Shown: piece by piece, positions 286 to 45,267 of the stretch
Layout: every line of letters starts with the position of its first letter
Numbering within the stretch: the first letter of the stretch is position 1
Assembly: GCF_964355755.1 (NCBI RefSeq)
Contig: NC_092679.1
Span: 22,365,432-22,429,431, forward strand
Length of the DNA: 64,000 nt
Origin: Antedon mediterranea
Lineage: Eukaryota; Animalia; Echinodermata
Direction of reading: 5' to 3'
Program-made: the position numbers and the translations under genes
The notes under the pieces: model-generated
Databases searched by the model: none
What the model saw: only the letters and a program-made list of their open reading frames with translations
Told to the model about the DNA's origin: nothing

Positions 286-3200
286 CTTGTTCCATGTGTG
301 CAATGATAGTTCTACAAAGCGTCACTCGGCTGATAGACTCCCCATGTCCAGTTGATGATACTGCACCAAAGTTATTGTCACAGTATGCCCCACATCCTGA
401 CAAAAAATAATGTATTCGCATCATTTTTAAATACAGTCAACACTGGCAGAGCATGGGTAAATACTAGTGTACCTGATCTACACTATCAAACTTTAATGTG
501 ACAAAAAAATGTTATGTGCCCATGAACATGATGATGTCATATCACTACCATACAGTATTTGGGCAAATCACACCTTTTTTGTCAAACTAGTTTGATAGTG
601 TAGACAGAGCTTTAATAATTGCAATTAAATCATAATTTCTTTTTCAAAAATCTATTAATAATACAGTACCTATCAATGGACTATCTCCAACTCGTCCCAC
701 TCGCTTTCCCGTGATGCCGCCGGTTGACGTTGCACAAGCAACGTTTCCTGACGCATCAACTGCTACAGCTCCAACAGTGTCATGACATTTCCTAACAAAT
801 TACCAAAATTAAATTATTTTCCACAATAATTATAAAGTTTGTGGTACACTATGCATTCCTTAAAAGGAAGTAAGAAAAACAAAAAAATATCTCCTAATAT
901 TCTATAAGTTTCTTTTATCTTACACCTACACACAAAAACCATGATTGGCCATCAAAATGGACAATTATACACTCTACTCTACATACCATTCTCTAAAAAA
1001 GATGTTCCTATTGACTCAGGATATTGTTACAAGGTGTTGTCCCCTAATTAGAGGTTTCACTTACCCTTGTCTAAACTGGTCACTGACTGTTACGCTATAT
1101 TTGTTATATTTCCTTGACATTTCCAGTGATTTTTCACAAACTAGCTCATCTGTGTTCACTTGTTCGATCCCTTGTTCCGTAGCAAATTGATTGGCACCTT
1201 TAGCGGCAAGTAACGTATGATCCGTCTGTAAAAGAAAGCGTGATAAGAAAGTGAGAAACTGGAAAGAGATCATAAAAAAATATCTAGTTTGATAGTGTAG
1301 ACAGAGCTATAACAGGTGTTTATTTGTGTTTCAATAGATAAAGAGCATGTGAACATAGCTTATACCTTTTCCATAACTAATCTTGCTAATGATACTGGGT
1401 TTTTTATGTTTTGTACACACGTCACTGCTCCTGATTGTAGGTTTTTCCCTTCCATAATAATGGCATCCATTTCAACATCACCTTCAATATTCAAAGCAGA
1501 CCCAGTGCCTGTAAAAAAGATTAACACGTTATTTTATGTGTAAAGCTCAAATTTTATGCCTATGTGCCTATATATGGGCATATCACTACCATATTTTGGC
1601 ATATCCCTACCATATTTAGGCACACCACTCTTTTTTGTCAGACTAGTTTGATAGTGTACAGCCAGTATTCAAATTTAAACTGTTGACAGTGTGCCTATAC
1701 TGATATGATATGATATGATAACTTTATTTCGTCCACATAGGAAAATATTTTGAGTGCTTTTCACAAAATTGTACAAAAATATATAAAAACGTTTCATATA
1801 AAAAATAATTAATTACAATATTTAAAAACACTATATATTATTTAACAATGTACAAGTATGAACATAAGAACATATTCTGTAATTGTCTATAGACACATAC
1901 TGTAGAACTAGTCGCATGGATGAAAACATTACATAAGACACAGTCAACTGTACAGATAGATAGTAGTCAACTGTACCAATAGCTAGTAGTCAACTGTACA
2001 GATAGATAGTAGTCAACTGTACAGATAGATAGTAGTCAACTGTACAGATAGATAGGTCAGTCAACTGTACAGATAGATAGGTTAGTCAACTGTACAGATA
2101 GATAGTAGTCAACGGTACAGATAGATAGGTTAGTCAACTGTACAGATAGATAGGTCAGTCAACTGTACAGATAGATAGTAGTCAACGGTACAGATAGATA
2201 GGTTAGTCAACTGTACAGATAGATAGGTCAGTCAACTGTACAGATAGATAGGTTAGTCAACTGTACAGATAGATAGTAGTCAACGGTACAGATAGATAGG
2301 TTAGTCAACTGTACAGATAGATAGATTAGTTGTCAACTGTACAGATAGATAGTTAGTAGTCAACTGCATAGATAGATAGGTTAGTCAACTGTACAGATAT
2401 AGTAGTCAACGATACAGATAGATAGTAGTCAACTGCATAGATAGATAGTAGTCAACGATACAGATAGATAGGTTAGTCAACTGCATAGATAGATAGGTTA
2501 GTCAACTGTACAGATAGATAGTAGTCAACTGTACAGATAGATAGTAGTCAACTGTACAGATAGATAGTAGTCAACGGTACAGATAGATAGGTTAGTCAAC
2601 TGCATAGATAGATAGGTCAGTCAACGGTACAGATAGATAGTAGTCAACTGTACAGATAGATAGTAGTCAACGATACAGATAGATAGTAGTCAACTGCATA
2701 GATAGATAGTAGTCAACTGTGCAGATTGATAGTAGTCAACTGTACAGATAGATAGGTCAGTCAACTGCATAGATAGATAGGTCAGTCAACTGCATAGATA
2801 GATAGGTCAGTCAACGGTACAGATAGATAGGTCAGTCAACTGTACAGATAGATAGGTTAGTCAACGATACAGATAGATAGGTTAGTCAACGATACAGATA
2901 GATAGGTTAGTCAACGATACAGATAGATAGTAGTCAACTGTACAGATAGATAGTAGTCAACTGTACAGATAGATAGTAGTCAATGGTACAGATAGATAGG
3001 TTAGTCAACTGTACAGATAGATAGATTAGTCGTCAACTGTACAGATAGATAGTTAGTAGTCAACTGTACAGATAGATAGGTTAGTCAACTGTACATGATA
3101 GACAGTAGTCAACTGTACAGATAGATAGTAGTCAACGGTACAGATAGATAGATTAGTCAACTGTACAGATAGATAGTTAGTAGTCAACTGTACAGATAGA

Positions 3201-3895
3201 TAGTAGTCAACGGTACAGATAGATAGGTTAGTCAACTGTACAGATAGATAGTAGTCAACTGTACAGATAGATAGTAGTCAACTGTACAGATAGATAGTAG
3301 TCAACTGTACAGATAGATAGATTAGTCGTCAACTGTACAGATAGATAGTTAGTAGTCAACTGTACAGATAGATAGATAGTAGTCAATTGTACAGATAGAA
3401 GTAGTGAACTGTACAGATAGATAGTTAGTAGTCAACTGTACAGATAGATAGTTAGTAGTCAATTGTACAGATAGAAGTAGTCAACTGTACAGATAGATAG
3501 TTAGTAGTCAACTGTACAGATAGATAGTTAGTAGTCAATTGTACAGATAGAAATGAATAAATTACATGTTCAGTTGACTGTTGTTCACAACATAAAGACA
3601 GTTAATTTATGAAAATAAAAAAATAAAGAACCTAAAATTAAACTGTGATTATATACCGTATATTAATTAATTTACCTGCATTGAACGTTGGATCATTTTC
3701 CAAGTAACGGACCGCTTCCTCGACGGCATCAACGGCAGATTCATTGCGACAGAGAACCTCATAACCTTTCTTTACAGCTTCCTGTACTCCATTGACGTAA
3801 GGCTTGCTTACACTATCAGGAATTGTCCATGCTCCTCCATGTACCAATACAGTAGGCTGAATCCGTTTGCATTTCTTTGTACATGTCTCTGTCAT
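286..3895 (-). CDS. ASRGL1: Isoaspartyl peptidase/L-asparaginase (ASRGL1-like Ntn-hydrolase), 5 coding exons in window, last exon(s) beyond the left edge
   Basis: Exons 3895-3676, 1508-1366, 1225-1065, 791-670, 396-286 are all GT-AG and phase-consistent. Motifs: [40 protein letters not shown], nucleophile segment [29 protein letters not shown]. Confidence 0.93.
1941..3551. repeat. 1.6-kb minisatellite, 23-bp core AGTCAACTGTACAGATAGATAGT with 27-bp and longer variants, in an ASRGL1 intron
   Basis: Dozens of tandem units differing by GGTT/GGTC/GATT insertions. Confidence 0.95.
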
Positions 3896-4750
3896 ATTGT
3901 GGCTTTAACTGCAACAGTTATTTGTAAACAAAATTAAATAATTTATATAAATTATGCTGAAGCTCATAATACAGTAGTAAGGTGGCAAGCATGTAATAAC
4001 ATAGTTACCAACCAGAGAGATTTGAAATTTGTGACTCAACCATCCATGTATGTAAGGCTACAGCAGATTAATTAGGCACTTTGTTGAACGTATATATCTG
4101 GAGTGTTGATTGCCAATACCAGGTCTTTAAAATTGCAACACGGCTGATTTTCTCCCATAATTTTTGGTTAACACAAGTTTACATGCACATCACACTTCAT
4201 GCCTTGCTATATCTACTGTACTAGAGAGAGCAGCCTGGTCAGATTTGCATGGCCGCTGCACCAATTAAGTTTAATTATGTATTAATAACAGTGAGCTAGT
4301 TCCGCTTCGCACCAGTCTTTTATTTCAACTTCAATATTACTCCATGATACAACTCATGTGCGAAACAGAACCAACTACGCCTAGACCTATCCTATATAGG
4401 CCTAGGCTTATTTATATTAAACATAATATTAAATAATAATTAATATTAATAATGAATAGGCTTGGACTTGCGGAACCTTTTTAATATTATTAATTTAATT
4501 TGAATGCATTTTTTAATTGATTTCTCTTAAAAAATAAATTATTAATTAGTGCTAAAAAATGATCACGCATAATATAGATAGATCATGAATATGTTTGAGT
4601 TTAGGGTAGGCCCTACCGCGTGTATACAAGCCTAGGCCTACTTTACTCTACTCTGTAGTTTCACCGTCAAGTCACACAGCCCGGGGTTTTCCCAACTTAT
4701 GCAGTTCGCTTGGCCTAGCAGCCATATAGGTAGCCTACTTACGTCTGACT

Positions 4751-4933
4751 TTATAGTGAATCAATTTGATTGCTAACGCCTTTAATTTGTTTTGATAATT
4801 CAAATCGCTTGTTTTGTAATCTCTTCTTTCTCCAACTGAATATCTTGTATCCCAATACTGTTCCGACTCCAACTCCAATACTAAAACTTAAAATAACAAC
4901 AATGGACAGCCGTTTACCAGAAACTTCGGCCAT
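4751..4933 (-). CDS. MTLN: Mitoregulin-like mitochondrial microprotein (60 aa, single TM plus basic WRKKRLQNK segment)
   Basis: MAEVSGKRLSIVVILSFSIGVGVG...SWRKKRLQNK aligns by eye with human mitoregulin as recalled (MADVSERTLQLSVLVAFASGVLLG...DWRKRRLQDK). Size is similar and the start context is strong (AACATGG). An in-frame upstream ATG exists at 4981. Confidence 0.8.
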   Translation of the reverse strand: MAEVSGKRLSIVVILSFSIGVGVGTVLGYKIFSWRKKRLQNKRFELSKQIKGVSNQIDSL

Positions 4934-6184
4934 GTTTCGTGAATTTTGCGAAAGGCCTGGTATGGAACGCCAAAACCGCATTTAGAAAAGTGATAATGAA
5001 TACAAAAGGGGAGTACACTAGATATTTAATGTACTCCCAATGTGCAGTTTCAATAAAGTAAACAACGTTGCTTGTTAACAACATCACCAATCATACTGAT
5101 ACACTGTCGTCGACAACATATATCCAAAAAAATATTAGTCTTATTTGCTTTCACCATTTTTTTTATTCCAATATGCTGGGTTATACAGACCATTGATGCA
5201 TAAATTACTTATACATACATGTGCATTTGTAAAGTTAATTATCTTAGCGAATAGTTATCTAACCTTTTACGGAAAATAGAAGTACATTTTTAGTAAATAC
5301 ATATATTATCATTTTACTCAAAAGCAGAGGAAACAACAATATGTAGCCATGTGCACAAATTATTGTGTTTTTACAATTTCAATGTTATGCAAATGCTCAA
5401 TAAGGTTCGTTTCCTCAGCTTATAAAAAACTTGAAATATTGTGCAGCCTGGAAAGGAATTTATGTTCCTTTTAACTCCTGCGAATTGCAATTTGGCAAAC
5501 TTGACTTTACGGTATATAACAAATTTTCCTCATTTTCAGAAAACCAAATTATCATTCTTTTTAAGGAGAAACATAACAGTTTATAATAGCTAGAGTGAGC
5601 ATGCTCCCTATCTATATTTCGCGTGCCGATTTTCGGGGCCTCAACACAAACTCGTTTAAAAATTAATCTTGTATAATTTTCAACAACTTATTTCTGACAA
5701 GAATATTTTCGATTGTGTATTTTAACAAAGTTTTTTAACACGATGATTTATTATTCACCTTTGACCTTTGTTGCTCACTCTAATACTTTTATTATAATTA
5801 GGCACAAACATAATTATTGAATTCTCAAAACATTTTGAGCTTAATGTAATACTATACAACAATGGCACAGTACCATTGAGACAAAGCTCAATGAGAATGT
5901 ATGCATGCTGCAGAGTACCCTCATAAAATATGTACACTCTCTGTATACAAAACAGTGCCCCCGTGGTATTCTGTCGCATGAGGACGTATTAGGATACCAT
6001 CGTCATGTCAAATCCAGTAATATTTCTGGTAAACATGCGAAATTTGACAGCAGACAGCAAAATATCGTAGAAACGGGCACTAACATGACTGAGACACGTT
6101 GGTGCACGTAGATACTAAATCAACAACATCGTTCACTTAACACCAATTAACAACATCGTTCACTTAACACCAATTAACAACATC

Positions 6185-6697
6185 GTTTCAGTTAACTAAT
6201 CACAGTGTGGAGAGCGTAGACACCAATTAACAATATGGTTTCAGTTAACTTCTAAGGCTCTCATCACAGTGGTGCAGTTAGACACCAACATTATGGTTTC
6301 AGTTAACTTCTAAGGCGCTCATCACTTGGTGAGCGTAGACACCAATTACGACATCATTTCAGTAAACTTTTAAGGCGCTCATCACAGTGGTGCAGTTAGA
6401 AACCAACTTTATGGTTTCAGTTAACTTGTAAGGCGCTCATCACAGTGGTGCAGTTAGAAACCAACTTTATGGTTTCAGTTAACTTTTAAGGCGCTCATCA
6501 CAGTGGTGCAGTTAGAAACCAACTTTATGGTTTCAGTTAACTTGTAAGGCGCTCATCACAGTGGTGCAGTTAGAAACCAAATTTATGGTTTCAGTTAACT
6601 TGTAAGGCGCTCATCACAGTGGTGCAGTTAGAAACCAACTTTATGGTTCAGTTAACTTCTAAGGCGCTCATCACAGTGGCGCAATTAGACACCAACA
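6185..6697. repeat. 58-bp tandem repeat, about 8-9 copies
   Basis: Unit TTATGGTTTCAGTTAACTTGTAAGGCGCTCATCACAGTGGTGCAGTTAGAAACCAACT, near-identical from 6370 to 6690 and degenerate at the left. Confidence 0.93.
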
Positions 6698-6804
6698 CCT
6701 TTTCAAGATAATTATCTCCATTAAGATATCAAATTATGTAGTTACTTTCAAACTCTTCTTAATAATCTTAAACATTAAAAGGCATACAATAGCAATACCA
6801 TCAA

Positions 6805-6885
6805 AGCTTGGTTCTCACTAGGACTCAACTGTAATGTGATTGGTCAAATTACATGTACATCGTTGCGTTGCGTGTGAACCAAGCT
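6805..6885. mobile_element. Short copy of Harbinger-type MITE family 2
   Basis: Ends AGCTTGGTTC...GAACCAAGCT followed by TAA. Shares GCGTTGCGT and TGATTGGTCAA with the copy at 61811. Confidence 0.6.
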
Positions 6886-8289
6886 TAAAGTTGTGCAGTA
6901 TAGTGTGCACCTTTCTAAACAAGCTTTTGAAATCTGGCATTGCCATTACAAACTTATTACAACTAAATGTATTTATATATCATGCTCAAATGATTTGTTA
7001 CTCTTTTTCCTGGTTGACCTTTGACCTTGTACAGGTGACAATTTGTGTGAACTTTGTATCTACATTTTTTGTGATTACCGTTCCATATGTTTTGTCTGTT
7101 TTCCGCCAAACCAAGGACAAAGTTTTTTTAAAAATTATTTACACAATATACATTGTATATAGAAGAAAGTTATTTACAATAAATTTTACAGTTTCAAAAA
7201 CAATCTATCAAGTTAGAATTTTGTATTTACAAAAGAGGGGTAATAATCAATTGGATTCTTTGACTGGTATTTATCAATATTTTCACTTAAGTCAAATTAG
7301 TTAATCTGTGCTTAAGTGAAATACTGAGGCTTATTTTAAGGAATGGACTTTTAATCGATTTATATACAATAATATGCCCAAATATTTACGTAGGTTATTT
7401 TGAAAACTGACTAATAAGCAAAATCTTTTACTTGAAATCATATTTTCCTGCGGACCCTTTTCCTGGTAATTTAGGATGTGAACTTTTTGAATTTAGCATA
7501 AAAATAAGCATGCTGGTACATTTGACAGAAGACAATTTTTCGATTACAATTTCGGGTCTCAAGAAAATTAAGAAAGTTGCATGCCGTATGTTTTGTATCC
7601 ATTTAAGACTTTAATTATTGGCCAAATAAAATAAAAAAATAAAAAACAGAAATGTTTGAATTTTTGGTTTAGGCATGCATGAATGAATTTCTCAAAAAGG
7701 TTTATGAAATTTTAAATCTATCAATAAACTATTTACAATTACCATAGCAAAATTATGTACAATATTTAAACTGCTATACCAACATCAATATAAGTAAAAA
7801 GTGAACATTTCTTTTATATTTACTTAATAATCTCTACAAAATTCCTTTAAAAATTGTTCAATTTACATGTATTTTAAAATTTTCAATATCATCAATAAGT
7901 TTTCTCTAAAAAATGTCCACTTTTTAAACTATGTATTTACAATATATATAAAGCAATGACGTATCCAGAACCAAAACCAAAAAATTAAAATTTCTCGAGC
8001 ATAATTTCATTTTAAAAACAATAAAAAAAGCTTATGTGGTTTTGGATCAGCGTAAGTTTAGCCTAACTTATTCTAGACTTTTTTTAAAAGATGCTCGAGA
8101 AATGACTGGACACGTCACAAAATGGTGAAAGCATTTTTTTTGTTTTCCAAATATGAGTTGTACATTTATACAGTTTTACTAATGTATATCAAATTTGTAC
8201 AATAGTAAAAATATTGTTTAAAAAATACCATAAAATAAATTGTATTTTTTTGGAGATCAATTTTCATCACATTATTTCAGCATTATCGT

Positions 8290-8482
8290 TGGGCGGTTGG
8301 GGGTGGAGAGGGAAGGGTTAGAGGGGGAAATGGGAGAGGTATGTGAGGGTATGGAAAAGAGAGGAAGGAGGGTGGGAAGAATTGGGGAGGTGAGGGAAAG
8401 GGAAGACAGAAAGTAAGGGGGAATAGGAAACGATGGAGGAAGAAAAGCATGACATTTGAGGAAAAGAGACAAGAAAGAGGTT
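8290..8482. repeat. Purine-rich (GA) low-complexity tract in the probable Rel 3' UTR
   Basis: About 190 bp of almost only G and A on the plus strand. Confidence 0.7.
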
Positions 8483-8622
8483 GCTTGTCATAGAAAAGGG
8501 ACTACAATAGATAACTCTTATATCAACCTATCACAGCGTTACGACTTTCTCCTCCACTGCCTCTCTCTTTGCTCCTCTCCACCCAATCCAACCACCATGG
8601 GCCTGATGTAGATGGTCAAGCT

Positions 8623-11600
8623 CTACATAGTGGCACCACTATTGCTTTGGATGTCTTGTACTTGACCAATATCAATGCTATTAAACACTGGAATATTCAG
8701 AGAGTCATGAACATCCTCCATGATATAATCATCTCCCACTCTATTCTCATCGACCGCAGGTAGCTGCCTTTCTTGGGACTGCAGGATTTGTTGCTGCAGA
8801 AGAGCAATATCAGCTTCATTCATAAAAGTGGATAGACTTGGAAGGGCATCACTTTCAGCTATGACGTCAACGTCGCCCCCATTCAAAATCTGCTGCATGG
8901 CTGCCTCGATGTCAGAAGCGTTTCCAACAGCCATATTGCTGCTTGGTACTTCCTCAACAACAACATTTTGGTATCCATCCGACATCGGGCCAAGAATATC
9001 AAACACTCCTTTAACTGTATCCATAGGACTTGCAACGGACACTGGGGTTACAAAACTACTGCTAGCGGCTAGATTGTATGGGGAACACATATCCAAATTC
9101 ATAGTAACTCCCGACTCGTCTATCGGATTCGAAGGTTCCCCTCCTAAGTTGAATTGAACATCGGCATCGTCAATTCCCTTGCCGGGCGACTGAAAATTGA
9201 AGATTCCGCTTGAAGAATCAATAGTTGACAACGATCCCTGTTCGATTACTTTGCCTGTGTTACCACTGGCACTGGAGTAAAACTTTTCGGTAGGCAGCAT
9301 GTTCGGAACTGCTTCTGCAGGCGCTTTTCCTTGCGATGACGAAGCTGTAGATCGTCGTGCAACTGTGAAAAAAATAATTTATAATTTACCCAAATTCTTT
9401 TATATTGTATTAAAACATAAACACTCATTTACCAGAGTCAACCCAATAGTATATTCAAAGGGGAATTACTGCTTTAAAATTAAAATTTTGAATATAAAAT
9501 ATAATTGGCGATCACATTAATACTATTTTCCCGATGAGGGCACTGAAGCAGAACAAACGACAATCTCGTACTACAAGAAATCGAAGGCGTGAAGCCGAAA
9601 GCAAAAAGCTAGCAACCACACAGTGAGTTAACTACGCATTGGTTAAGCGAGATACCAACCCGATTTTCGAACACCGTGTTCGAAGGTGGGCAGTACTTCG
9701 CTTAATCGATGCCTATTTTAACCAACTGTGCCAAACTAGCGTTTTGCAATCAACCTACCATGTCTTTTCAATTTTTCTTTCACGTTCATTGTGGCTTTTT
9801 CACGACTTGTTGGTCCAGGTTTTGAAAAACGACAAGATGAAATTTTGAAATTTTCAGCTATTAATAAATAAAAATAAGAAATGCGATAGGTATAAATTTA
9901 ATTCACATTAAAATGGTTTGCCGTGCGCCATGTAATTCCTAAAAAAGGAAGTACGTAAAGTTGAGACTGCCTCATTGTTTTTGCCGTGGTACAAGAACCG
10001 AAACGTCAAACATTATCAACTTTACTTACTTAGTTCAGAGGAATTAAATGCTGTACTTTCCTAGTGTTTATAAGTTCTACAAAACCTGTAAAGCTCTGTC
10101 CACACTATCAAACTTTATGTGACAAAAAGAATGTGATGTGGTCATATATGGACATGATGATGTCATATCACTACCATATTAGGGAATATCACTACCACAT
10201 TTGGGCACATCACACTTTTTTTAACATGCAATTTCACGAAATAGTTTGATAGTGTAGACAGAGCTTAAAACATACCCCTAGCCAAAAAGTTACACATGAC
10301 CTGCAGTGGAATGACCATTATGTATACAAGGCAGAAATAGAGGTCAAAATGTAGCGCCCTCACTTGCCTTTCACAGCTCCATAAGCTTACCATGACTATG
10401 GTGAATCATTGTATTTTCCTATGCCTTACCACGCCCCTTAAGTCTTTGTTTAGGGAAGTATGCAAGTGCCCTAGGACTATATTGTCTAATATTTTAGTGT
10501 GCAAAAACAAACCTAGTACTCTCCGAGTAGTCACGGAGTCACACAATCGTATGGGAACAATAGTAAAATTCTGTCTTGGTAAGACCGAAATGAGGTTTAA
10601 AAATATTCTTATCTAAGGTTATTAATAATATAGCTATAATATAGATATAGCTTTAATTTTTATATTTTACTGTATAAAGAATAGACAAAACAATCTTACC
10701 TTTTGGCTGCATGCCATCTTGATGCATATAGCTCTCATAACAAGGTTGATTCCGTTTTCGCTTCTGACCAATTTTATGAGGATCTAGAAAAAAAAATTTA
10801 ATGAAAGCAAGTTATGTTAAATAATTCATTAACAGATATGATACGTTTGTTATGATGTCTCATAAAACATTCATCAAACATTTATGGACAAAATACTAGT
10901 TCTGTCAACTTTATGCCCTCTTAAGCCCAGTCTACGCTATCAAACTTTATGTGAAACAAAATGTGATGTGCCCATATATGGACATGATGATGTCATATCA
11001 CTACCATATTTGGGTATATCACTACCATTTTCGGACCCATCACACTTTTTTTGTCAAACTAGTTTGATAGTGTAGACAGAGCTTTACTCCTGACAAGACT
11101 GAGGCGTATTGATCAATACGTCGACATAGATTGTCGATGGTATACTAACCTGGTTCTTCTGGGGTGTAAATAAGGTCCATTTCCTGGCTTTCCTCTTTAT
11201 CAGAGGGCCTAATCAACTTGAACCTAACTTTCTTTGGTTGTTGAATGTTCAAGTCCTTGTATGCTGGTATTTTACATACTATCGCTACCTACATGGAGAC
11301 AAAAAAGAAATAATATTAATAATGGATTGAACTTGACTAAGGGTCTGTCTACACTATGGAACTAGTTTGCCAAAAAGTGTGATGTGTCCAAATATGGTAG
11401 TGAAATGCCCAAATATGGTAGTGAAATGACATAGTCATGTCCATATATGGACACATTACAATTTGTTGTCATCTAAAGTATTATAGTGCAAGACAGAGAT
11501 TTATATTCAGGCCTAAACACAACATTTTTAAACAACTACACTAGTTTTCAAGTGTGCGCTAAATAAAACAATTAGCCGACATTTGCCTTGACTAAGAGAG

Positions 11601-14600
11601 CAGTTAATTTTTTACTCAAAATCAACAAACTTCTTTAGGCCAGAAAAAATAAAAATCCACCTACCTGGCGATGAATGTCAGTGGGGCCAAAGTCTCCATA
11701 GTCGATCCAACCTTGGTCGTCCATAAACATCACTTTGATGTCATCTAAATACCAAATAACAAAATTAAAAATGCTACTAGAAAAATTAATTTACACAACA
11801 TAAAAAACAACATTTTTACAATAAATAAAAACCTTTTAATATATAAGAGAAACAAGGAATATTACCTCGCTGAACTTTATCACACAAGATAAATAGTTCT
11901 TCATCACCTCTGACAGAGCAAGTTTTACGATCCACTCGGGCAATTTGCAATGTGGCGCCCTCTGTGGAAAAAAAACCCATTGATTTATGAATATAAACCA
12001 TGATAAGGCATCATATTAACCTAAGCCACAGTTAGTTGTGGCTGCCTTGGATTTGTAGAAAAACTATATGAGAGTTTCCTCAACTGATGATCAATAAAGA
12101 AATACTCACTTTTGTCAAAAACCGGTTGCGTTATGACTGGTTCCAACGGAATATTAGGTTGGTTCGGTGCATCATTATTGGCAATGTAAACTTGAAAACA
12201 AAGGCAGACGACGGTCAGGTCATATTCTGCCACAAGTTTCTTGGCGTCTTTGGTTGTCAGTGTAAAATTATTATAAGGGTCAATACCATTTCTTCCACGC
12301 TCCTCTAAAGCTGTAACAATTTCTTTCTTCTTGATGCACTGGACACCAAGGTTCTCAAACCTAAAAATAAAATTGTTTGAATAATTTTAAGGGTCGCTGA
12401 TAGATAGAATTTTTAGATACTATAGAAAACTTTTGGTTTTGTCTCTGTAGTACTGCATTTAACTCCTTTTTTGAGTTAAATTTGACCTGTGAAAACTGTG
12501 TTAGGGGAGAGATGAATCAACTTGTAGTCTTAAGCTCTGTCCAAACTTTATGTGACAACAAAATGTGATGTGCCCATATATGGACACAGTGTTGTCATAT
12601 CACTACCATATTTGAGCACATCACATTTTTTTTTGTCAAACTAGTTTGATAGTGTAGACAAAGCTTTATACGCTTTAATGGAGTGAACTCCTTATATCTG
12701 ATAGACATTCAACCCAGAATCATGAGAGAGCAACATGTATGAGTTCAAGATTTGTCTGTGCCCTCTTGTTTGTGTTCTTACACTAGCCAAATTTCATTAC
12801 TTCATCCTTAGGATGGGATGTTAAGCGGTTGATTCCATTTACATAAATATTAAGGATAAACAATTATTTTCTAAAAGATTAGGGGGTTGTCTTCCACACT
12901 TGTGGTACTCATGGTAGAGTGCCTGTTGCACTGTTACATTGCAACAGGCTCAAATATGGTAGTGATATGACATCACCATGTCCATTAAAAAAAATCTGAT
13001 TAGGTCATCTACAGTAGATGACCTAATCAGATTTTTTTTCATTTAATTGAGAACCATTAAAGACTGTATAAAGATTTATGTACATAGCTACATAGAAAAA
13101 GAATGGAGTAAATCAATTACTTCTGGGGTTTCTCTCCCTTTGTCCAGCTCTTCTTGCATATCCCATCTTTACAGTCTTTTCCAACGAGGCCGTGTGGATG
13201 TGGCCGAGGCTTGGACTGACCTTTCTCTCTCGTGACACAAGACACAACTACTCTTGCTGGTCCTTTATAATTCTTTATCTGTGAAAGAAAATAGTTTACA
13301 GAAAAGTAGTAAATGTTCAAAATACCGTAAAACTTTTGGGGCACCTCTATTAAGGAACACTTTCATGTCGAACAAACAAGGCAATATGTTTCTAAAATAT
13401 GACCAACCACTATATTAAGAGGACACCTTTGTCCTAAAAGTGTCCCCATAATAGGGGTTCTAATGTAATATAATATACTAGAAATTATCTCTCAATATTC
13501 GCACAAGCTCCGCCACCTTTGTAAATATGCAAATGAATAAATTTAAAATTAAATTATCTTCCATGAAGTCTGTGTAAATTGAGTTATCAAACTTGATGTG
13601 ACAAAAAAATGTGATATGCCCATATATGGACATGATGTCATATCACTACCATATTTGGGCATATCACTACCATATTTGGGCATATCACTACCATATTTGG
13701 GCATATCACACTTTTTCTTTGAACTAGTTTGATAGTGTAGACAGAGCTTCAAAATAATCATATAGTTGGAAGTAAGGAATTTTGTCTTCTTAATTTCGTG
13801 ATGAAAAAAAAATTGTTTAAAGAACTAACCTGAATCGTCGGGTAGGTTTTCTTATCTGATGATGAATTTTCACCAGGAATACTTCCAGCGGACCTTCCTT
13901 CACATTCATAACGGAATCTTAGTTCCTTCTGCTTCGGTTGTTCTACGATTTCGACATAGGGAGTATCTGGTTGAGGCGTACTTAGCCAAGTGTCTGAAAA
14001 TAGATGAAATAATACTATGGTATTTATTGAAATACTGTATTATTTAAACAAATATATGCACTGTATAATGTGGCAAATAATGACCTATTGTTTTAATTTC
14101 AAGTAGGTTTGACTTGCCACACAGGAGTGGAAATGGACACTGCTGGACAATAAAGAGAAACAAAAAACAGTGCTAATGAAAAATACCAATAGAAACCATG
14201 CAGTATTGCATACCTAGAGGGCAGCAAATAGAGTTCCCGCAAGCTAAAGGCCTAGCTAACAAAATTAGCCTAACTACTAGCCTACTACTACCACACTCTC
14301 TAGCTAGAGGCCTAGCCTAGCTAGGCTTGATCAGGACTGTGATCACACCAAGCAATACAGTACTAACCTTTATTAATAAACGTCCTTGATTTAAATTGAG
14401 AAGAACTCATTCTTTGGGTGAATTGAACAACCATGAAGGCATTCTAATAATCTAATGCTGTCTTTTTACTACACAATTACTGCACAAACCAAAATCTATT
14501 CAGGAAATCATGACAACATATACTAAAAATAATTTTCATGGAAATTCCAGCTAATGGACAGTTCCATTTTGAAATAGGGGTGTTCAACATAAATGTCTAT

Positions 14601-17600
14601 AAGTGCAAAATTAACAACAAAATTGTAATATTATTGATAAATTATACATTTGAAATGTAGTGTTATAAAGTATATCACACAAATCTAAAATGTTGAATGG
14701 TATCATTAATCTCTGATAGAACGCCTCAAACACACCACACTTGACATCAAACTGATAATGAAAACTACCATTATCATTTTAACCAATCACAGAAGTGATT
14801 GATGACATCATAATGTAAATAAACAAAAAGCAGGAAGTTATTACACAAAATACCATTTACCGGTACTCCATGAAAATACTATTACTGCATAATTATACAT
14901 TATCTTTAGCCAGCTATAGAGAAAAAGAACTCTATTTTAATTAACTTTAGCTAAAAATATTCCATTATTTCATACAAAATTACCGCAATGCAGTATTTAT
15001 CATAACTGCTATAGCTTTATGTAGGATTCAGATGCAATTATTATTAAACATCTTTTTTCTCAAAAGAAAATTAAGCTCAGTATTACTATATAATAAAAGC
15101 ATTAATATTATAATATAGTACATGGGAAGGTGTAATAGAAAAAAATAATAACACACAAAACCTATTTGCATCTATATTATAGAAGTTGGGAAAAATAATT
15201 AAAAACATTCATAAAATAATATTTATTTATGTTACAACTATTATTGCCAATGACTTATATTTTTATTTTCTTGCTTGTCACTTTTATTATATTAAAAAAA
15301 AAAAAAAAAAACAGCAAACATATTATTCACTTTATGGTAACACTGCCCTCTATCATTCCTAGTAGCTTATTGCAATATTCAGTTTTGTTTTCGGATTATG
15401 AATGAAATCTTTGGATTTGATATTTGTTATTGCGCAATCTTTGCTTTTCCTTTTTATTCAATATTATATTTTAGAAAACAGCAATGATAATACCCCCCTC
15501 TATTATTCCTAGTTGCTGATTGCAATATTCAGTTTTGTTTTCGATGTATGAATGAAATCTTTGGATTTGATATTTGCTATTGCGCAATACCGCATTGCCG
15601 TCTTTTGAGATTGCTTCATGTATGATAGTTAAACGGAAAGATTTTGACAGTGTGCATTGTACATGCAGGATATTGACACTGAATGGAATTAGAGTGTTCC
15701 TCAATCGAAAACCAATTGTACTTCAATTTTTTTATAGCTAAAAATAAAATGCTTTTTTTTGTAACTAAAATGTAATTATTCCTTTTACATGTGTTATTGG
15801 ATTTAGCTCTTGAACAATCTGCCTTTACATAATAGAAAATCGACATCCTTGGACAGTTTTAAGTCACTTCTAAAAACTGATTTTTCTTTTTGGAAACGCT
15901 GTGAGCAATGATCGTTGTAATGGCGCTTTAAAAATGGAACAATTGTTGATTTAATAGAAAATAAACACATAAATAATGCAGTAAATAAAATGAAAATGTT
16001 CTATTTTTACACAAGAAGCCGGTAAAAATTTGAGTGAGAAATCACGTCCAAATATCCCACGTACAGTATATGCACAATGAGTTAATTATACTGTAGGTCA
16101 TTGTAGGTCATTGTAGGTCATTGTAAATCGAAAGCTCTGTATAGTATCTTTTATTTAAAAAACTTATTTCTAATAGGTTTTAAATTTTAAAAAGATAACC
16201 ATTCTATTTAACACCTATATAAAGGCACACAATAATAACAATCCACTTGAAAATGCCATTCAGAAAATAGTAAACAAAGTATTTCAGATAAACACCCACT
16301 CAACTCAACTATTTGCAATATTAAGTACAAACTAATTTATATTCACTTGGTAAATTGAATGTTACACACAGTTTGTTTAGTTATTTCAGTTCATTATTCA
16401 TAGCCATTTGTTTGTATAGCTATAGACAGAATATACCTTAATGTTGCAGAGGGAGAGAGCTACATTAATGAATAAATTTGTTATTATTTATTTATTTACT
16501 TCCTCACTACCTCTGTTAGTGAAGGATCTGGACCAACAGGTGGTAAACACCTCTAAAACAGTTCAGTCCCAATTGAATAGTAGCTGTGTGTGACATCAGC
16601 GGCTGTGTTTGTGTGGACTAGTACACCGGGGTAACCCTCTACTCGTCTCAAAAGATGTACTAGGTTCTTTAGTGCACATGAACTATGTGTACACTGGACC
16701 TACGGTTTATAGTCCTTATCCGAGAAGACTCATTCTACTACCAGAACCATGGAGCGAGTGAGCCTCAAACCCTTGCCAATGTTATGGCTACGTAATTACG
16801 GTTCCACTGTCTTACTGCTCGGCCACTCACTAAATTACAACCAGACAATGAAAAAACAGTTAAAGAAATTGATGAAGACAGTTTACTTTTTTTTTTATTA
16901 AAAAAAAACAAGTGGGGTGTATATCATTATATTGGTACGTGACATGGGTCCCTGTTTCTGCTGTAAAATACTAACTGATTACTATTAACCATGTGAATAC
17001 ATTAATCCTAATTTCTTGGCAGCAGAAACAGGAAACATTTTCAATAACTAGTTGATTGGTGGGTGTTTCCATTCTATCATTTACTGTCGCATCTTGGACG
17101 GTTTGACCGCATGAGGACATTGCAATTTGGGTAATTAAAACCTTGGGACACTCCAATTCAGGAGACACCCTTATTTGGGGACAATAATTCATGAAATTAA
17201 AGAAGAAGAATATATACAGTAGCAACAGAGCCAACCTATTCAGAAGGGAACACTTTTTGGGGGGGGGGGGGGGGGGGTGTGTCCTGAAAGTGTCCCCTTA
17301 ATAGGAGTTATGCTGTGAGAAGTGAGCATGGAGAAATATTTGAAGAAAAAAAAAACAGAAATTGTTCCCAAATGGAAAGACAAAATAAAAGTAAATGACA
17401 AATACTAATGTCACATTTTAATGTTTTTTTATTTTCAGTAACTGCAGTAACTGCAGTAAAATAATTTTAACATGATCTCACAGGAAGAAGAAAGAGGAAG
17501 GAACCATGATTATAGACAACATAACAAAGATCTATGCTGATATCAAGGAAACAACATGACATAGGAACATGGAAAGAATTAAATACACGCACGCAATATG

Positions 17601-34200: not shown

Positions 34201-36807
34201 GTCTGAGTTGGCCTTTGTTGCGTCTACGTCCTAGCGTTGCGTCTTTAGTAGGAACCTTTACCTACCTGTAAAAATAGCCATTCTCATCGTCCAGGCTTTG
34301 CTCAACAGCGCAGTATATAGTCGTCTGGGCACCCATCTCGGAAGTACTAGCGATTAATGGTAACAAAATCGTAGCAACAACACGTTTTATTGGACTCAAG
34401 TAACGACAAATTTCGGTTGATACCAGGCCAGGATGAAGGGAATAACAAGTCACATTTGTTCCTGTAAAAAAAACAACATTGTATTAGGCCTAAAAGTATA
34501 CCTAAACAGAATGTTAAACAGTTAAAACATCCACCATAACAAACCTTTTTCGGCATCACACACCAATCACAAATATTGTTCACCGGGTCTACCTAAATCC
34601 TGGGAAAATGTTTAATTCAAGAACCGTTTTGCTCCTTTTTCGCCTGTCCATTTTCCAGAGAAAAACATGCCGCTCATGTCTGGATTGTAAATTTGCATAT
34701 CAACCTCTAATCATTTGGAATTATACTGAAACACAGCATATCAACATAATAAATTGTTTTTGTTACCTTTTAACATTCTCGCAAGTTCATTAGTGAACAT
34801 TATATTTGCCAACTTGCTTTGTCGATACGCTTTCAAGGGAGCGTAATTGTCAGCGGTCAGATTAATGTCATCAAAATGGATTTTTCCTTGTCTGTGTGCA
34901 AATGAAGAAACAGTAATGATGCGACTTGGTGCCGAGCTCTTAATCACATCCAGGAGGAGGTGAGTTAGCAAGAAGTGGCCTAGATGGTTGACACCGAACT
35001 GGAGCTCAAATCCGTCTGTTGTCTTTTGTGGAGAGCACATTGATACCCCTTAAAAGCAACATAACAGACCCGTTAGGCCATTAGGAAATGGTTGATGTGT
35101 GCTTTTCATCACTCTTTAAAAACCATAGATATAATACTACTAGATTAAAAGACAAACTGAGACCTAGAAAAGGTCTATTTCATTTCTATCATTTCCGTCG
35201 TATTTCATATTTAGAAGTTAAAATATCAAGTGGTAATCCTGAAGCATGTAGCAACAAGGTCAACAGCCATTAAGTCGCGTGCTACAATGCATAGTGATAC
35301 CGGACCGACAGACAAACAGACCGACAGACAGACGGATCGACCGACATAGTGAACTATACTGACCGAAATTACTGAACATGTTTAAAAATGTTGAAATGTT
35401 TAAAAACATTTATATTTTTTTAATTTACACGTGCGTAGCCTGTCACTTTTGACGTGCTCGTATAACGTAATTTCGAGTTGAAAAGTAAGTCAAGAAAACA
35501 GAAATCGGGCAAAAAGAGTGCGCAATAACATTTAACGCGCAGTACGCGCGCAAAAATCTGCGCACTCATGGCAATTTTGTAAACGCTTAAAAATGCCTGA
35601 AACGTACTCTTATTTCATCGAAAATAAATTTTGAAAATTTTAAGCGCGCTTACGCATGTGTTACATGCGCTACGCACGTAATTGTATTGCCATATGATGA
35701 TTTATGCCCTGAAATTTATGAGTACCAAATTTTATTTAATTGTGATTCATGGTTGTTAAGATATGATTACAAACGTGATTTCGTTAAATCGTGCGTAGAC
35801 CGCGTAATTTTTTTATTGCGCACCGTGAAAACATAACCACATCGATTCCTGGCCATAAGGAATATTCTGTGAAAAATTGACTTAGCTAGATTAAACTGAT
35901 ATCAAGATAAGGTCATAAAGCGATAAAACAGACAGACAGACAGACAGACCGACAGACAGACCGACAGACAGACAGACAGACCGACCGACCGACATAGTGA
36001 ACTATAGAGTCGCTTCCACGCGACTAAAAACCGAGAACGCGATGTTCCGAATTCCTTGCAAGCGCATAACTGTCAAATATCCAATTAGCTTATAAAATAG
36101 ACAATCATCAATCGACTGTCGATCGGAAACAATCGGACAGACAGACAGACAAACTGAAACTGACCTGCATTGTTTATGAGAATGTTTACTGGTGATTCTT
36201 TTTCGATGATTAATTTAGCAAATGACCGTATGGATTTAAAAGATGCAAGGTCCAGCCGTTCCACAGTCAGAGCTCCAACACCCTTCCCGGATGATTCCGT
36301 CAGAATTTCATCAACTGCTCTTTTACCTTTGGTGACGTCACGACAGGCTAGGATGACCTTCGCGCCTGCATAAATAAATACAAATATAAGAGAGATTGTA
36401 ATTACAATCAAGTGCTAAATAATAACATTTACTAAGGGAATTAATACATGCTCTCATAGCAGTTACTGGTATAGCTCTGAATAAAACACGGTAGGTCAAA
36501 GAAACAATGTTGAGGGTATCTATACTAAACGTTTCCAGTACTACACTATAGAAATGGCGGGTTTAAATAAATAAAAATATTGATGGTCTAATAATAACAA
36601 TTATTTTACTATAGCGATGAAAATAAACATACCGCGACGCACTAGATCCCTGGCCGTCTCCTTCCCAATACCCGTATTTGCTCCGGTTATAATCACAACC
36701 TTTCCGTCCAATCTTGTGTTGCTGCAGTACCTCTTTCTGACCAATCGCCTTCTTAGCATTAATATCAATACACCTGTAATAATTGTAATGCAATGAGGAC
36801 GTTTCAT
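28262..36807 (-). CDS. Retinol dehydrogenase 11/12/13-like short-chain dehydrogenase/reductase, 319 aa
   Basis: Exons 36807-36633, 36365-36165, 35048-34767, 34461-34266, 28367-28262 (960 nt, GT-AG, phase-consistent). N-terminal [30 protein letters not shown], catalytic YRQSK, LHPGLV, and C-terminal [14 protein letters not shown]. Confidence 0.93.
28599..30916. mobile_element. Non-autonomous CAC...GTG DNA element (Chapaev/Transib/RAG-like termini), copy 1 of a tandem dimer
   Basis: Starts CACACTC and ends GGATGTG. A shared subterminal motif GGGACAWWAAGT is inverted at both ends. Left flank is AAGG. No transposase ORF seen. Confidence 0.75.
30917..33234. mobile_element. Copy 2 of the 2318-bp CAC...GTG element
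   Basis: Apparently identical to 28599-30916, with identical ORFs offset by 2318. Right flank AAGG completes a 4-bp TSD. Confidence 0.75.
33340..33890. repeat. GAT/GAC-rich low-complexity region with a 27-bp subrepeat, continuing the similar tract at 28420-28590
   Basis: GATGACGATATTGACAGTGACGCTGAT-like units at 33400-33530. Confidence 0.7.
33916..34257. mobile_element. Harbinger MITE family 2 copy with a nested GC-rich MITE (about 34012-34214)
   Basis: Outer GGTTC...ACTAG / TAGTAGGAACC ends with ACGCAAC motifs. Inner inverted repeat GACGAGACCCGACGA / TCGTCGGGCCTCGTC. Confidence 0.55.
35253..36030 (-). mobile_element. Helentron-associated (HINE/DINE-1-like) non-autonomous element
   Basis: Terminal stem-loop AGTCGCTTCCACGCGACT next to an A-run, subterminal inverted AGTCGCGTG, two (GACA/GACC)n microsatellites, AACAAG end. 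A short relative is at 52713-52833. Confidence 0.65.
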
Positions 36808-41345: not shown

Positions 41346-43962
41346 TTTGTGTTTCTTTTGTATCAATGCCGAATTTAGTATCTTTAACTGGCAGAAATCA
41401 TAATTTATTTCAGGATTCATATTTTTCTAAAAGCAATTTAAATTGAAAAAAATTATTTGTTCAATTAGGAATTTATTGAACATCTAATAATAAAAATTGA
41501 TAAAATGCTATCTCTCTAGCTGAATGCTTTGTGTTTTAATCTTTTTTAAGAGACAACATTATCGTTGAGAGCATAATTAGTGTATTCGTAAGAAAATCTG
41601 TTCACGGTTCAGTGGCGCTAGAATTAGCTTCATCTCTTTAAACTGTAAATCGCCTCGCATTTGAATCCAGAACACGATATAATGTGTCCTGTATATAGTC
41701 TCTTTAATGCCCTCTCATAATTAAGATGGACAAACACGTCTCGGTAGCATTGTAATAAATACACTGCTTATACAACTATAGCACTTCCAACGATTAGCTA
41801 CATAACTTTTATTTTCTACAGCCTCTTTATGTTAACCGTTAAATATTATACTGCTGTATCCTATACACTGGCTTTTCTACGACAGTGAAAGGATGATTAG
41901 GCATGTAAACACATCACTTGATAAAAGGTGTAAAACACTTCTTTTAAACACTTACTTTTGATGGGAACTGGTACGTAGTGGTTTGAACCTGCAGTCTGAA
42001 TACATGTTTAATATAATTTTAAGAAGTATATTTTTGGAAAAAGTAACGTCTTTTGGTTAGTGCTCCGAGTTTTGTGATTTTGAAAAATAAACTAAATAAA
42101 AGAAAGGATTAATGAACAATAAAGGATGCGGAGTATGTTTTGTTTTGTTAGATGAAAGATGATAATCTATATGATACCAGAACTTCTGCTTTCAATTCGT
42201 AAGAAGCCAGTTCGAGCCCGTAGTCATCCAAACATATGCATAGTCAGGGGCGGGGCTCGAGGGTTTGAATCAACCTCACTCAATTGGTAGAGATAGTCCT
42301 AGCTAGCCTTGCCGCAGCTCTTGACGAGTTTCTGATCTTTTTGTGAAAAGAAAAACCAGTGTAAAAAAATCATGGCTATATACGGGCTTGTGCTATGCAT
42401 CTAATAGTTGAATTTAGTAAGTTATGAAAACCTTTCGGTTCAACGGTTTCGTCTTAAAACTGGATAAAGTAGCTGTAGGCCTACGATTCATTTTTTACAC
42501 AAATTGTAAATGAAAGAAATTCGCCATTAGCCATTTTGTCGATGCGTAGGGAGGCCTACTCAATTTCTGTGAAACGATAATTAACCTATATATAGGTCTA
42601 TTATGAAAGTCAGGCTTTTCCAGCTCTTTCCCAATGGATAAACGACATTTATTTATTGCTGTACTTAAAATGTAAGTTAATCCAGTAATCATTTGTATGG
42701 TGTGATAACTGGACAATTGTATTGGCGCCAAAACATATTGTATGGCGTAAAAAATATAGCCATTAACATGCGTTTACGATCTGATTAACACGCAAGAATT
42801 GTGTTTTGGTCGCATCACATCTACTAGCCCTAAAGCTCTGTCTACACTGTCAACGTTTGATCCAAGTGTGGTGTACCCACATATGGTAGTGATATGACAA
42901 ATATGGTAGTAATATGACATCATCATGTTCATGTTCGCGGTGTAAAATAGTCTCCGGCTCATTTGAACATAAAGTCAGAAGCCTAGAATTTTTGAAAACG
43001 CTTTTTTTCTATCTTGCATTTTTTTATAAATTAAATTGCCGACGTAAATTAGAAGTGTCATGTTGTAATTTTTATGCGTCAACTTAATTATGGAAATATA
43101 TGTTTTATCGAAATTTTAATATTCTGTTTGCGTCAGTTGAACATATGATTTTTTATGAAAGTTGCGCAATTTAAAAAGGAATAAATTATTATTATTGTAT
43201 CGACAGTTTGTACTGATAAATACCACCCAGAACAGACGACAGCAGCACAGTCTTTCACTTCATCTAATGACTACACAGTGTTATTGCTTTATTTAAAAAT
43301 AGGCTTAACGATTTTTGCTATAAGTGGGTGTCAAAACAGGTCATTTGTCTTAATTTAAATCCCCAGTGTACCGAATAAGTGTTAGACGTATTGCTTTTAT
43401 TCAATAGTAATAATTGATTTTAAACTGCTTTTTCATTTCTTTCAGAACAAACAGGTTAAACAATTAACAACCGCAGAATAATAATAATATCAAGCAGGTT
43501 ATTTATGAAGTTCTTATTTAAATTGGAAAGAAACGTCGAGTTGTAATCAAAGAAATATTTGAAACAATCTGGAATAATATAAAGCAACATAACTTGGAGA
43601 CTGATACAAAATAATTATTATGGTTTGGTGAATTAATCTCAATTTTGAAGACAGGGTCTGAAAGAAGTAATCACAAATTAAAGATGGCGTGGATTTGAAA
43701 TTCCAGAAAAGCGGAATAATTATACATTTCAAGCATACATTGCCTGTAGACCGTATTCCTCTTCATCACGCACATAATATTATGCAAATTTCAAACATCG
43801 GTTTGAGGATGCAGTTCCATTGAAAATTATACGATTTTCCTTCAGCATTTCGAAAGAGACACCGTATATTGATACAGCACCCGGGAGAGAACGTTTAAAT
43901 CTATCTCCATACATTGGAATATTCTACGTCGGATCAAAATTAAATATTATTGAATTTCAAAT

Positions 43963-45267
43963 ATGGCGACTGAAAAACAGGGTTCATTTCAGATGATCTT
44001 TGGTAGGATTCCTTCGATGAGGGATAGGGGTCGGCGGAGTAGCATGGGACAGCAGTCGGGAGCTGGTGCCTTACATGACGCTATCAGTAAAGGTAAGGTT
44101 CATCTCGCTAGGTTTATCATCGAAGCAACTGAGGAGAGGACTCTTGTTAACGTGAAAGACACGCACGGAAAAACTCCTTTAATACGTGCGTGTAAACACG
44201 TAGATCGTAACGCGCGCATACGAGCAATGGAGCTACTGATTAAGCACGGGGCTGATGTTAATCTTAAAGATAACGTTGGACGCACGGCGTTAAGTTACGC
44301 GTGTCAGTTAAAACACAACGACGCGGTCGCTTTGCTTGTTAAAAGCAACGTAGATCCAAATATTGAAGATAACATGAGTAACACTCCGCTTGGTTACTGC
44401 GCTAAACACAACAATGTGGGTGCGATAGAAACAATTATTAGGTCTTTCAAACGACTAGGCCTGAATATCGATCACGCTAACGAAGAAGGAATGACACCTT
44501 TAATGGAAGCTGCGAGAAATGGATATTTTCAATGTGTGAAAATTCTTATTCAAAACGGCAAGGCTTCGTTAACATTGCGTGACCAATTTAGAAATCTAAC
44601 CGCTGAGGAGTGGGCGCACGAAAATGGATGCACGCCAGAATTATTGGAAATTTTCCAGAAAAAGAAACATCGAAGACATGGTGATTTAGACGCAGATCAA
44701 GACGAGTGTAATCTAGGTAAATCGTTTGATGACGACACAGAAGACAACGTGCTGCTAACGCCAGAAGGAACAACTCCGGAGTTACGTCATAAGCAAATCG
44801 TTGATGAAAAGGGGGATAGTGGAGGATTATCTCCTTGCACTAAACTCCGATCGTTAAAACTTGACAAAAGTCCCAGAGTCCCTTTATTGGCTAGACGCGA
44901 TAGAATAGGTGATGCCACAATACACAGGTTATACGGTCGCCCAAGATCAGCGACGTGTTTGGAATACATGTCGCGGAGTTTCGACAGCGTTGAGCGCGAG
45001 AAGCAAGATCAGAAATATCGTCTGAGCGCTAGCCACGAATGCCTAGTGGATTTGACATCTGTAGTATGTCCTTCTCTTCCTATAAGCTTGAGTATCAGTG
45101 TTGAAAATATACGACGTGGAGAAGACGGTAACGATCTAAGGCATGGCTCAAGTTCTGACTTACTGCAAAGAGTTAGGCGCTTCACCAAGAGTCCAACTCT
45201 ACTAAGAAATAGGCCTAAAAGGGAAAGATCGGAATCACCCGAAAGGGCATACTTTCCGCCAATTTAA
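43963..45267 (+). CDS. ANKRD63: Ankyrin repeat domain-containing protein 63-like, 434 aa, intronless CDS
   Basis: About 5 N-terminal ankyrin repeats (GKTPLIRAC, GRTALSYAC, NTPLGYCA, GMTPLMEAA). Segments GKVHLARF and RSFKRLGL are shared with vertebrate ANKRD63 as recalled. Disordered Ser/Arg-rich tail. Confidence 0.85.
   Translation: MATEKQGSFQMIFGRIPSMRDRGRRSSMGQQSGAGALHDAISKGKVHLARFIIEATEERTLVNVKDTHGKTPLIRACKHVDRNARIRAMELLIKHGADVNLKDNVGRTALSYACQLKHNDAVALLVKSNVDPNIEDNMSNTPLGYCAKHNNVGAIETIIRSFKRLGLNIDHANEEGMTPLMEAARNGYFQCVKILIQNGKASLTLRDQFRNLTAEEWAHENGCTPELLEIFQKKKHRRHGDLDADQDECNLGKSFDDDTEDNVLLTPEGTTPELRHKQIVDEKGDSGGLSPCTKLRSLKLDKSPRVPLLARRDRIGDATIHRLYGRPRSATCLEYMSRSFDSVEREKQDQKYRLSASHECLVDLTSVVCPSLPISLSISVENIRRGEDGNDLRHGSSSDLLQRVRRFTKSPTLLRNRPKRERSESPERAYFPPI

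Follow-up and report, generated by a model that had tools for sequence, protein, structure and literature searches.

The minus strand of the window, the 64,000-nucleotide stretch of the Antedon mediterranea genome whose coordinates are used here, makes a spliced and probably ancient bicistronic arrangement in which a 60-codon open reading frame (ORF) for a divergent homolog of mitoregulin precedes ASRGL1. An earlier note on this DNA had proposed a bicistronic mRNA of a mitoregulin-like microprotein and ASRGL1; this is now supported by a spliced contig from a sequencing run (X1), by the homology of the peptide, and by the same pair of ORFs in a second organism, represented by the metagenomic locus L003. 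We consider it likely that one spliced RNA carries both ORFs and that both are translated; for ASRGL1 the likeliest route is leaky scanning, in which ribosomes pass over the first start codon (AUG1). This reading is built on the observed spliced form, the homologies of both products, an interval between the starts that is free of AUG, and a second instance of this layout in L003.

The stretch is present in five sequencing runs, none of which is recorded as RNA; X1 is taken to be RNA by guess and by the spliced joint that it contains. Among the Logan contigs of X1, a single unbranched contig of 1,719 nt (depth 47.8) bears the whole 60-codon ORF together with the joint to ASRGL1, matching 4934–4743 and 3908–3675 with zero mismatches and skipping 834 nt with the ends CT..AC. 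The unaligned tail of the contig is the start of ASRGL1 exon 3, and its total length is approximately the sum of exon 1, the full ASRGL1 ORF and a 3′ untranslated region (UTR) of about 551 nt. The splice junction 4743/3908, which the earlier note had predicted and which called for a look at RNA, is crossed by this contig and is missing from the DNA run X2, in which the stretch lies in one piece. The signals behind that prediction are all present on the minus strand, namely the TAA stop at 4753–4751 with a GT donor 8 nt on, after 4743, the acceptor AG before 3908, 13 nt ahead of the ASRGL1 ATG at 3895, and the AATAAA at 4324 within the intron. The spliced spacer between the ORFs is indeed 21 nt (7 codons), in frame, and holds a second TAA, for a total of two in-frame TAA codons. 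The RNA evidence comes from one run of one study and is at the level of contigs, which do not resolve single molecules, the start site, the strand or the proportions of isoforms. No long X1 contig falls within intron 1 or 4942–5124, such contig gaps being no proof that a short isoform ending at an intronic poly(A) site, trans-splicing or read-through from the upstream Rel gene is absent. The 5′ end of the X1 contig lies 1 nt above the ATG at 4933, and there are four further ATGs upstream of it, in frame at 4981 and 5119 and out of frame at 5084 and 5094, so the position of the transcription start matters.

Table 1. Features of the mitoregulin-like–ASRGL1 unit in the window
Feature	Position	Strand	Remarks
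Interval from Rel 3′ end to small ORF	4934..5144	-	About 210 nt; promoter and short 5′ UTR inferred
Exon 1, as covered by the X1 contig	4743..4934	-	Ends 8 nt past the small-ORF stop
Mitoregulin-like ORF (P0001)	4751..4933	-	60 aa, from ATG 4933 to TAA 4753-4751, all in exon 1
Intron 1	3909..4742	-	834 nt, GT..AG; AATAAA at 4324 and four ATTAAA inside
Exon 2	3676..3908	-	13-nt spacer, ASRGL1 ATG at 3895, about 74 codons; RNA contig
ASRGL1 exon 3	1366..1508	-	Exon model; start matches tail of RNA contig
ASRGL1 exon 4	1065..1225	-	Exon model
ASRGL1 exon 5	670..791	-	Holds the conserved HDTVGAV motif
ASRGL1 exon 6	286..396	-	Exon model; last 68 codons lie beyond the window

The downstream ORF is that of ASRGL1. 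The residues encoded by exon 2 match without any difference the beginning of the RefSeq protein XP_071963607.1, the isoaspartyl peptidase/L-asparaginase-like protein of the crinoid A. mediterranea. Translation of all five coding exons that lie in the window gives P0002, identical to that protein at 252/252 residues; the RefSeq protein likewise starts at the ATG at 3895. The frame is intact, the product matches PF01112, and the HDTVGAV, TSTGG and GRVGDSP motifs are conserved, the threonine of the first being what we take to be the ASRGL1 nucleophile. The fly ASRGL1 gene is presumably the one named CG7860. The best 120 of 6,136 ASRGL1 homologs are mostly 305–330 aa long, and in the 119 of these 120 that bear the HGG[AS] motif the N-terminal part has a median length of 9 residues. 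A mitoregulin-like N-terminal extension is found in none of the 119 listed proteins that bear the HGG[AS] motif (best phmmer score 1.9 bits). Because the N-termini of the homologs are short and none is like the small ORF, the ATG at 3895 is the ordinary ASRGL1 start and not that of a truncated protein. ASRGL1 intron 2 also contains a 1.6-kb minisatellite of about 23-bp units (1942–3551), and 21-bp units at 1570–1629 are related to a dispersed repeat of the Rel introns described below.

The peptide encoded by the small ORF fits the build of mitoregulin, which is a protein of about 56 aa with one N-terminal hydrophobic segment and a basic C-terminal part. The hydrophobic segment of P0001 spans about residues 9–27 (best 19-residue hydropathy 2.34, from residue 9) and is followed by a basic helix, residues 33–60 containing eight K/R versus two D/E; the structure predicted from single-sequence input is one helix over residues 3–59 (pLDDT 90). 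Residues 1–58 align to positions 1–54 of the 56 in the Pfam MTLN profile (PF22002) with 21.3 bits (E = 2.5e-4), which misses the curated cut-off of 27 bits and is nearly equaled by the LapA_dom profile at 21.1 bits. In an alignment P0001 carries a four-residue insertion in the membrane segment relative to most homologs, and this insertion probably explains the low Pfam score.

A two-sequence profile of P0001 and the L003 peptide was searched against 1.84 billion representative proteins and gave 32 matches at E ≤ 0.001. The MTLN cut-off is passed by 29 of them; P0173 scores 23.5 bits, and neither P0162 nor P0176 matches MTLN. P0145, which reaches 60.5 bits on MTLN, is 42% identical to P0001 over 59 aa. 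The 29 family members above the cut-off (within P0145–P0175) share a G-[YF]-K/E/Q..W-R-like core, and several of them sit on contigs of 1.0–1.6 kb, which is long for a lone 60-aa ORF. None of the 10 profile matches looked up carries a name. Tyr29 and Trp34 of P0001 are common to most of the homologs aligned and are candidate counterparts of two human residues; in human mitoregulin, Trp25 and Trp37 have been linked to self-association (PMC11732159).

When 28 of the proteins that pass the cut-off (all but the 278-aa P0166) were made into a profile that includes neither P0001 nor the L003 peptide (P0122), P0001 scored 48.5 bits, a value reached by none of 2,000 local shuffles (best 24.1); the 28 were gathered with P0001 in the query and are in this respect not fully independent of it, and their Pfam scores are. 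The next best of 1,095 frames in the window scores 7.3 bits, and this profile scan of frames found no second mitoregulin copy within the 64 kb. The small ORF could instead be a relic that is no longer translated, or a frame of the ASRGL1 leader that is hydrophobic and then basic by chance, as might be suggested by its score below the Pfam cut-off, by the similar LapA_dom match and by the absence of the exact P0001 sequence from a collection of 15 billion proteins. We regard this as very improbable in view of the identity to P0145, of the wide gap between P0001 and the other window frames on a profile built without it, and of the ORF's same position in L003. Other searches with P0001 were negative: a word-based protein search gave no candidate, none of 595 pattern matches from a metagenome scan was confirmed, and a PDB sequence search returned six weak matches (best E 0.21), none relevant. 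By these sequence comparisons P0001 is a divergent mitoregulin homolog and not a formal member of the Pfam family, so the likeness to mitoregulin claimed earlier holds as homology to proteins that pass PF22002.

The same pair was recovered from a metagenome scan with an ASRGL1 alignment, for which the best 80 of 553 confirmed loci, mostly prokaryote-like, were kept. Locus L003 (1,345 nt) contains a 65-aa ORF at 71–268 that scores 34.8 bits on Pfam MTLN (E = 1.5e-8), above the cut-off, followed by a 42-nt spacer (14 codons) and an uninterrupted 320-aa ASRGL1 at 311–1273. It is the only one of the 80 loci with a mitoregulin ORF before the asparaginase, which counts against the pairing, although most of the others look prokaryotic and are uninformative; four loci of possible eukaryotic origin (L002, L004, L017 and L018) have <150 nt of upstream sequence each. 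P0001 and P0122 are 30% identical over 53 aa, and their score is reached by 0 of 5,000 full shuffles and by 0 of 5,000 for each of three local shuffles. Two complete, nonoverlapping ORFs on one spliced RNA are thus found, at contig level, both in X1 (one run) and in L003, which is most likely a spliced cDNA because the cluster mates of its enzyme break off at about residues 96 and 171, as expected at introns.

The L003 enzyme is 52% identical to crinoid ASRGL1 over the best segment and at most 57% identical to named proteins. In a tree of 57 rows, made by a quick method with the careful search unfinished and with no arthropod or cnidarian rows, it forms its own clade with two proteins (support 100) and joins no named group. 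Judged from its sequence, L003 comes from a distant organism, probably an animal. It is very unlikely that the same two genes met twice by chance; common descent is the simplest explanation, and the mitoregulin–ASRGL1 pairing is probably ancient.

Both spacers keep the reading frame, a coincidence expected by chance in one case in nine, and in L003 a single TAA separates the ORFs (266–313). These features would suit occasional read-through of the stop, yielding a membrane-anchored mitoregulin–ASRGL1 fusion. Against this stand the two in-frame TAA codons in Antedon, the lack of any fused protein among the 120 listed ASRGL1 homologs, and the finding that none of the 32 profile matches matches an asparaginase family. 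We share the earlier view that such a fusion is unlikely, and rate it the least probable of the alternatives.

As the earlier note had observed, the 201 nt that separate the two Antedon starts contain no ATG; the 237 nt between the starts of L003 are likewise free of ATG, as is the 70-nt leader above its small ORF. Depletion of AUG before the second ORF marks leaky-scanning bicistrons in algae (PMC11892635). By chance, an interval of the Antedon length is ATG-free in 122 of 2,552 equal-length tiles of the window (4.8%) and in 4.9% of Markov simulations, and for L003 the Markov value is 4.6%. Synonymous recodings of the peptide are ATG-free in 88% of cases for Antedon and 18% for L003, and because these recoding nulls are high the ATG-free interval lends modest support. 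The absence itself stands, and as a sign of leaky scanning it is weak evidence in Antedon taken alone.

The contexts of the start codons differ between the two organisms. In L003, AUG1 has a pyrimidine at −3 (weak) and AUG2 an A at −3, which is the pattern of leaky-scanning bicistrons (PMC11892635, PMC9681215). In Antedon the context of AUG1 is strong, with A at −3 and also G at +4, and a comparison by eye with the TISU element (consensus from PMC3177215) finds agreement in 9 of its 12 positions; both features disfavor leaking. When the 5′ UTR is short, leaky scanning increases even at start codons in a strong context, though not at a full TISU (PMC3177215), and leaking from Antedon AUG1 is plausible if the leader is very short.

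The main rival to leaky scanning is that transcription start sites are scattered, long RNAs making the peptide only and shorter RNAs that begin inside the small ORF making ASRGL1. The strong AUG1 and the X1 contig that begins just above it are compatible with such a division, and any start within exon 1 would yield a clean ASRGL1 message, with no ATG in between. A stop codon before several exon junctions is also a classic trigger of nonsense-mediated decay, which counts in the same direction. The leader and weak AUG1 of L003 fit leaking from a full-length RNA instead, and we consider scattered start sites unlikely.

Reinitiation, in which ribosomes would remain bound after terminating on the 60-codon ORF and begin again at ASRGL1 21 nt further on, would accord with the shortness of the spacers, 21 nt in Antedon and 42 nt in L003, and with the strong AUG1 in Antedon. 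However, the upstream ORFs that permit reinitiation in mammals tend to have fewer than 30 codons, and its occurrence after long ORFs is described as presumably very rare (PMC5972666). Rfam has no matches in 3600–6200, and the segment 4743–4990 folds no better than shuffles (z 1.12). We judge reinitiation improbable. Where the earlier note had left the choice between leaky scanning and reinitiation, we infer that leaky scanning is the likelier, the ORF having 60 codons against the roughly 30 that reinitiation usually permits.

Under leaky scanning of one spliced RNA, most ribosomes would start at the first AUG and produce a single-pass membrane peptide, which by analogy with vertebrate mitoregulin may go to mitochondria. 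A minority would skip this AUG, in Antedon probably through its proximity to the cap and in L003 through its weak context, and would meet no further AUG until that of ASRGL1, with the result that the enzyme would be made at a lower, possibly stress-adjustable level. The pair would have been inherited from the common ancestor of Antedon and the L003 organism and would have become separated in humans.

The gene upstream of the unit is a Rel/NF-kB gene on the minus strand (5144–14039; RHD_dimer match). Its last exon and some 3.5 kb of what looks like its 3′ UTR are covered by X1 contigs, which end at 5144. This end lies 18 nt below an AATAAA and leaves about 210 nt to AUG1, a weak hint that space for a leader is tight, and the promoter of the mitoregulin–ASRGL1 unit may overlap the 3′ end of Rel. 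In the interval that follows Rel and precedes the small ORF, a near-perfect 30-bp palindrome with 15-nt arms (87% complementary) occupies 5009–5038. The apparent Rel 3′ UTR contains 27-bp and 58-bp tandem repeats (6118–6196 and 6234–6696), one 27-bp unit at 6122 being absent from X1. A very abundant dispersed repeat of the Rel introns, with internal 21-bp units (about 10090–13730 and 16670–16820), has contig depths that sum to nearly 1e5 or more in each of the two runs mapped. Elsewhere in the window we recognized by eye exons resembling a short-chain dehydrogenase (34741–36414, minus strand), a long ankyrin-repeat exon (43954–45267, plus strand) and exons resembling a 14-3-3 gene (58926–62389, minus strand).

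Vertebrate mitoregulin (MTLN, MOXI, LEMP or MPM; LINC00116; PF22002) resembles the Antedon peptide in size, 56 versus 60 aa, and in having an N-terminal hydrophobic and a basic C-terminal part (PMC11920140). The Antedon ORF sits before ASRGL1, whereas human MTLN and ASRGL1 are listed as separate Ensembl genes (PMC13303939), consistent with the earlier description of human MTLN as a stand-alone gene. Conserved small ORFs before an unrelated main ORF on one mRNA are found in the human pairs STREMI-SLC35A4, MIURF-MIEF1 and PYURF-PIGY, and also ASDURF-ASNSD1, and human bicistrons have been termed "bipartite origin, bicistronic transcription" (PMC13303939). The route by retroposition proposed for SLC35A4 (PMC13303939) does not fit the intron-rich ASRGL1; if either part moved, it was if anything the intronless upstream ORF. 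Stress control is a feature shown for STREMI (PMC13303939), whereas for the Antedon pair it is a proposal.

A comparable case is Drosophila sloth1-sloth2, the orthologs of SMIM4 and C12orf73, which form a bicistron in the fly, a choanoflagellate, a sea squirt and a lamprey but are split in jawed vertebrates, and for which leaky scanning has been proposed (PMC9681215). The sloth peptides are related mitochondrial peptides that act together, and their AUG1 is weak (PMC9681215); in Antedon, by contrast, mitoregulin is paired with an unrelated hydrolase of 320 aa that is not known to be linked to it, and AUG1 is strong. In dipterans, conserved small ORFs in upstream and dicistronic positions also share transcripts with other ORFs and are enriched for mitochondrial import proteins (PMC2276209), and the main text of that paper contains neither "asparagin" nor "CG7860". 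In the PMC13303939 supplements, as far as covered, MTLN and ASRGL1 are found in an expression table and nowhere else. We found no report of a mitoregulin–ASRGL1 pair in the literature searched, in which subscription journals were largely not covered, and this agrees with the statement in the earlier note that no pairing of mitoregulin with an asparaginase was known.

These results overturn the working view, held by reviews, of mitoregulin as a vertebrate-only protein. About 30 divergent homologs now reveal which residues are important in this protein, the mechanism of which is a matter of dispute. That such genes are missed can be explained by annotation, the main ORF being annotated and the upstream ORF not being found as a protein record. 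A bicistronic pair seemingly kept across very distant animals also provides a natural test of the reasons for which mitochondrial microproteins are so frequent in the leaders of unrelated genes.

A wider proposal, which we put forward tentatively and with some doubt, is that mitoregulin is ancient and animal-wide, that its ancestral home was the ASRGL1 leader, and that the ORF doubles there as a stress-sensitive gate; vertebrates would have split the pair, and other lineages would have moved the ORF in front of other genes. If this is true, the gate would tie isoaspartate and asparagine clearance to the state of the mitochondria, and would explain why the pair has stayed together across phyla.
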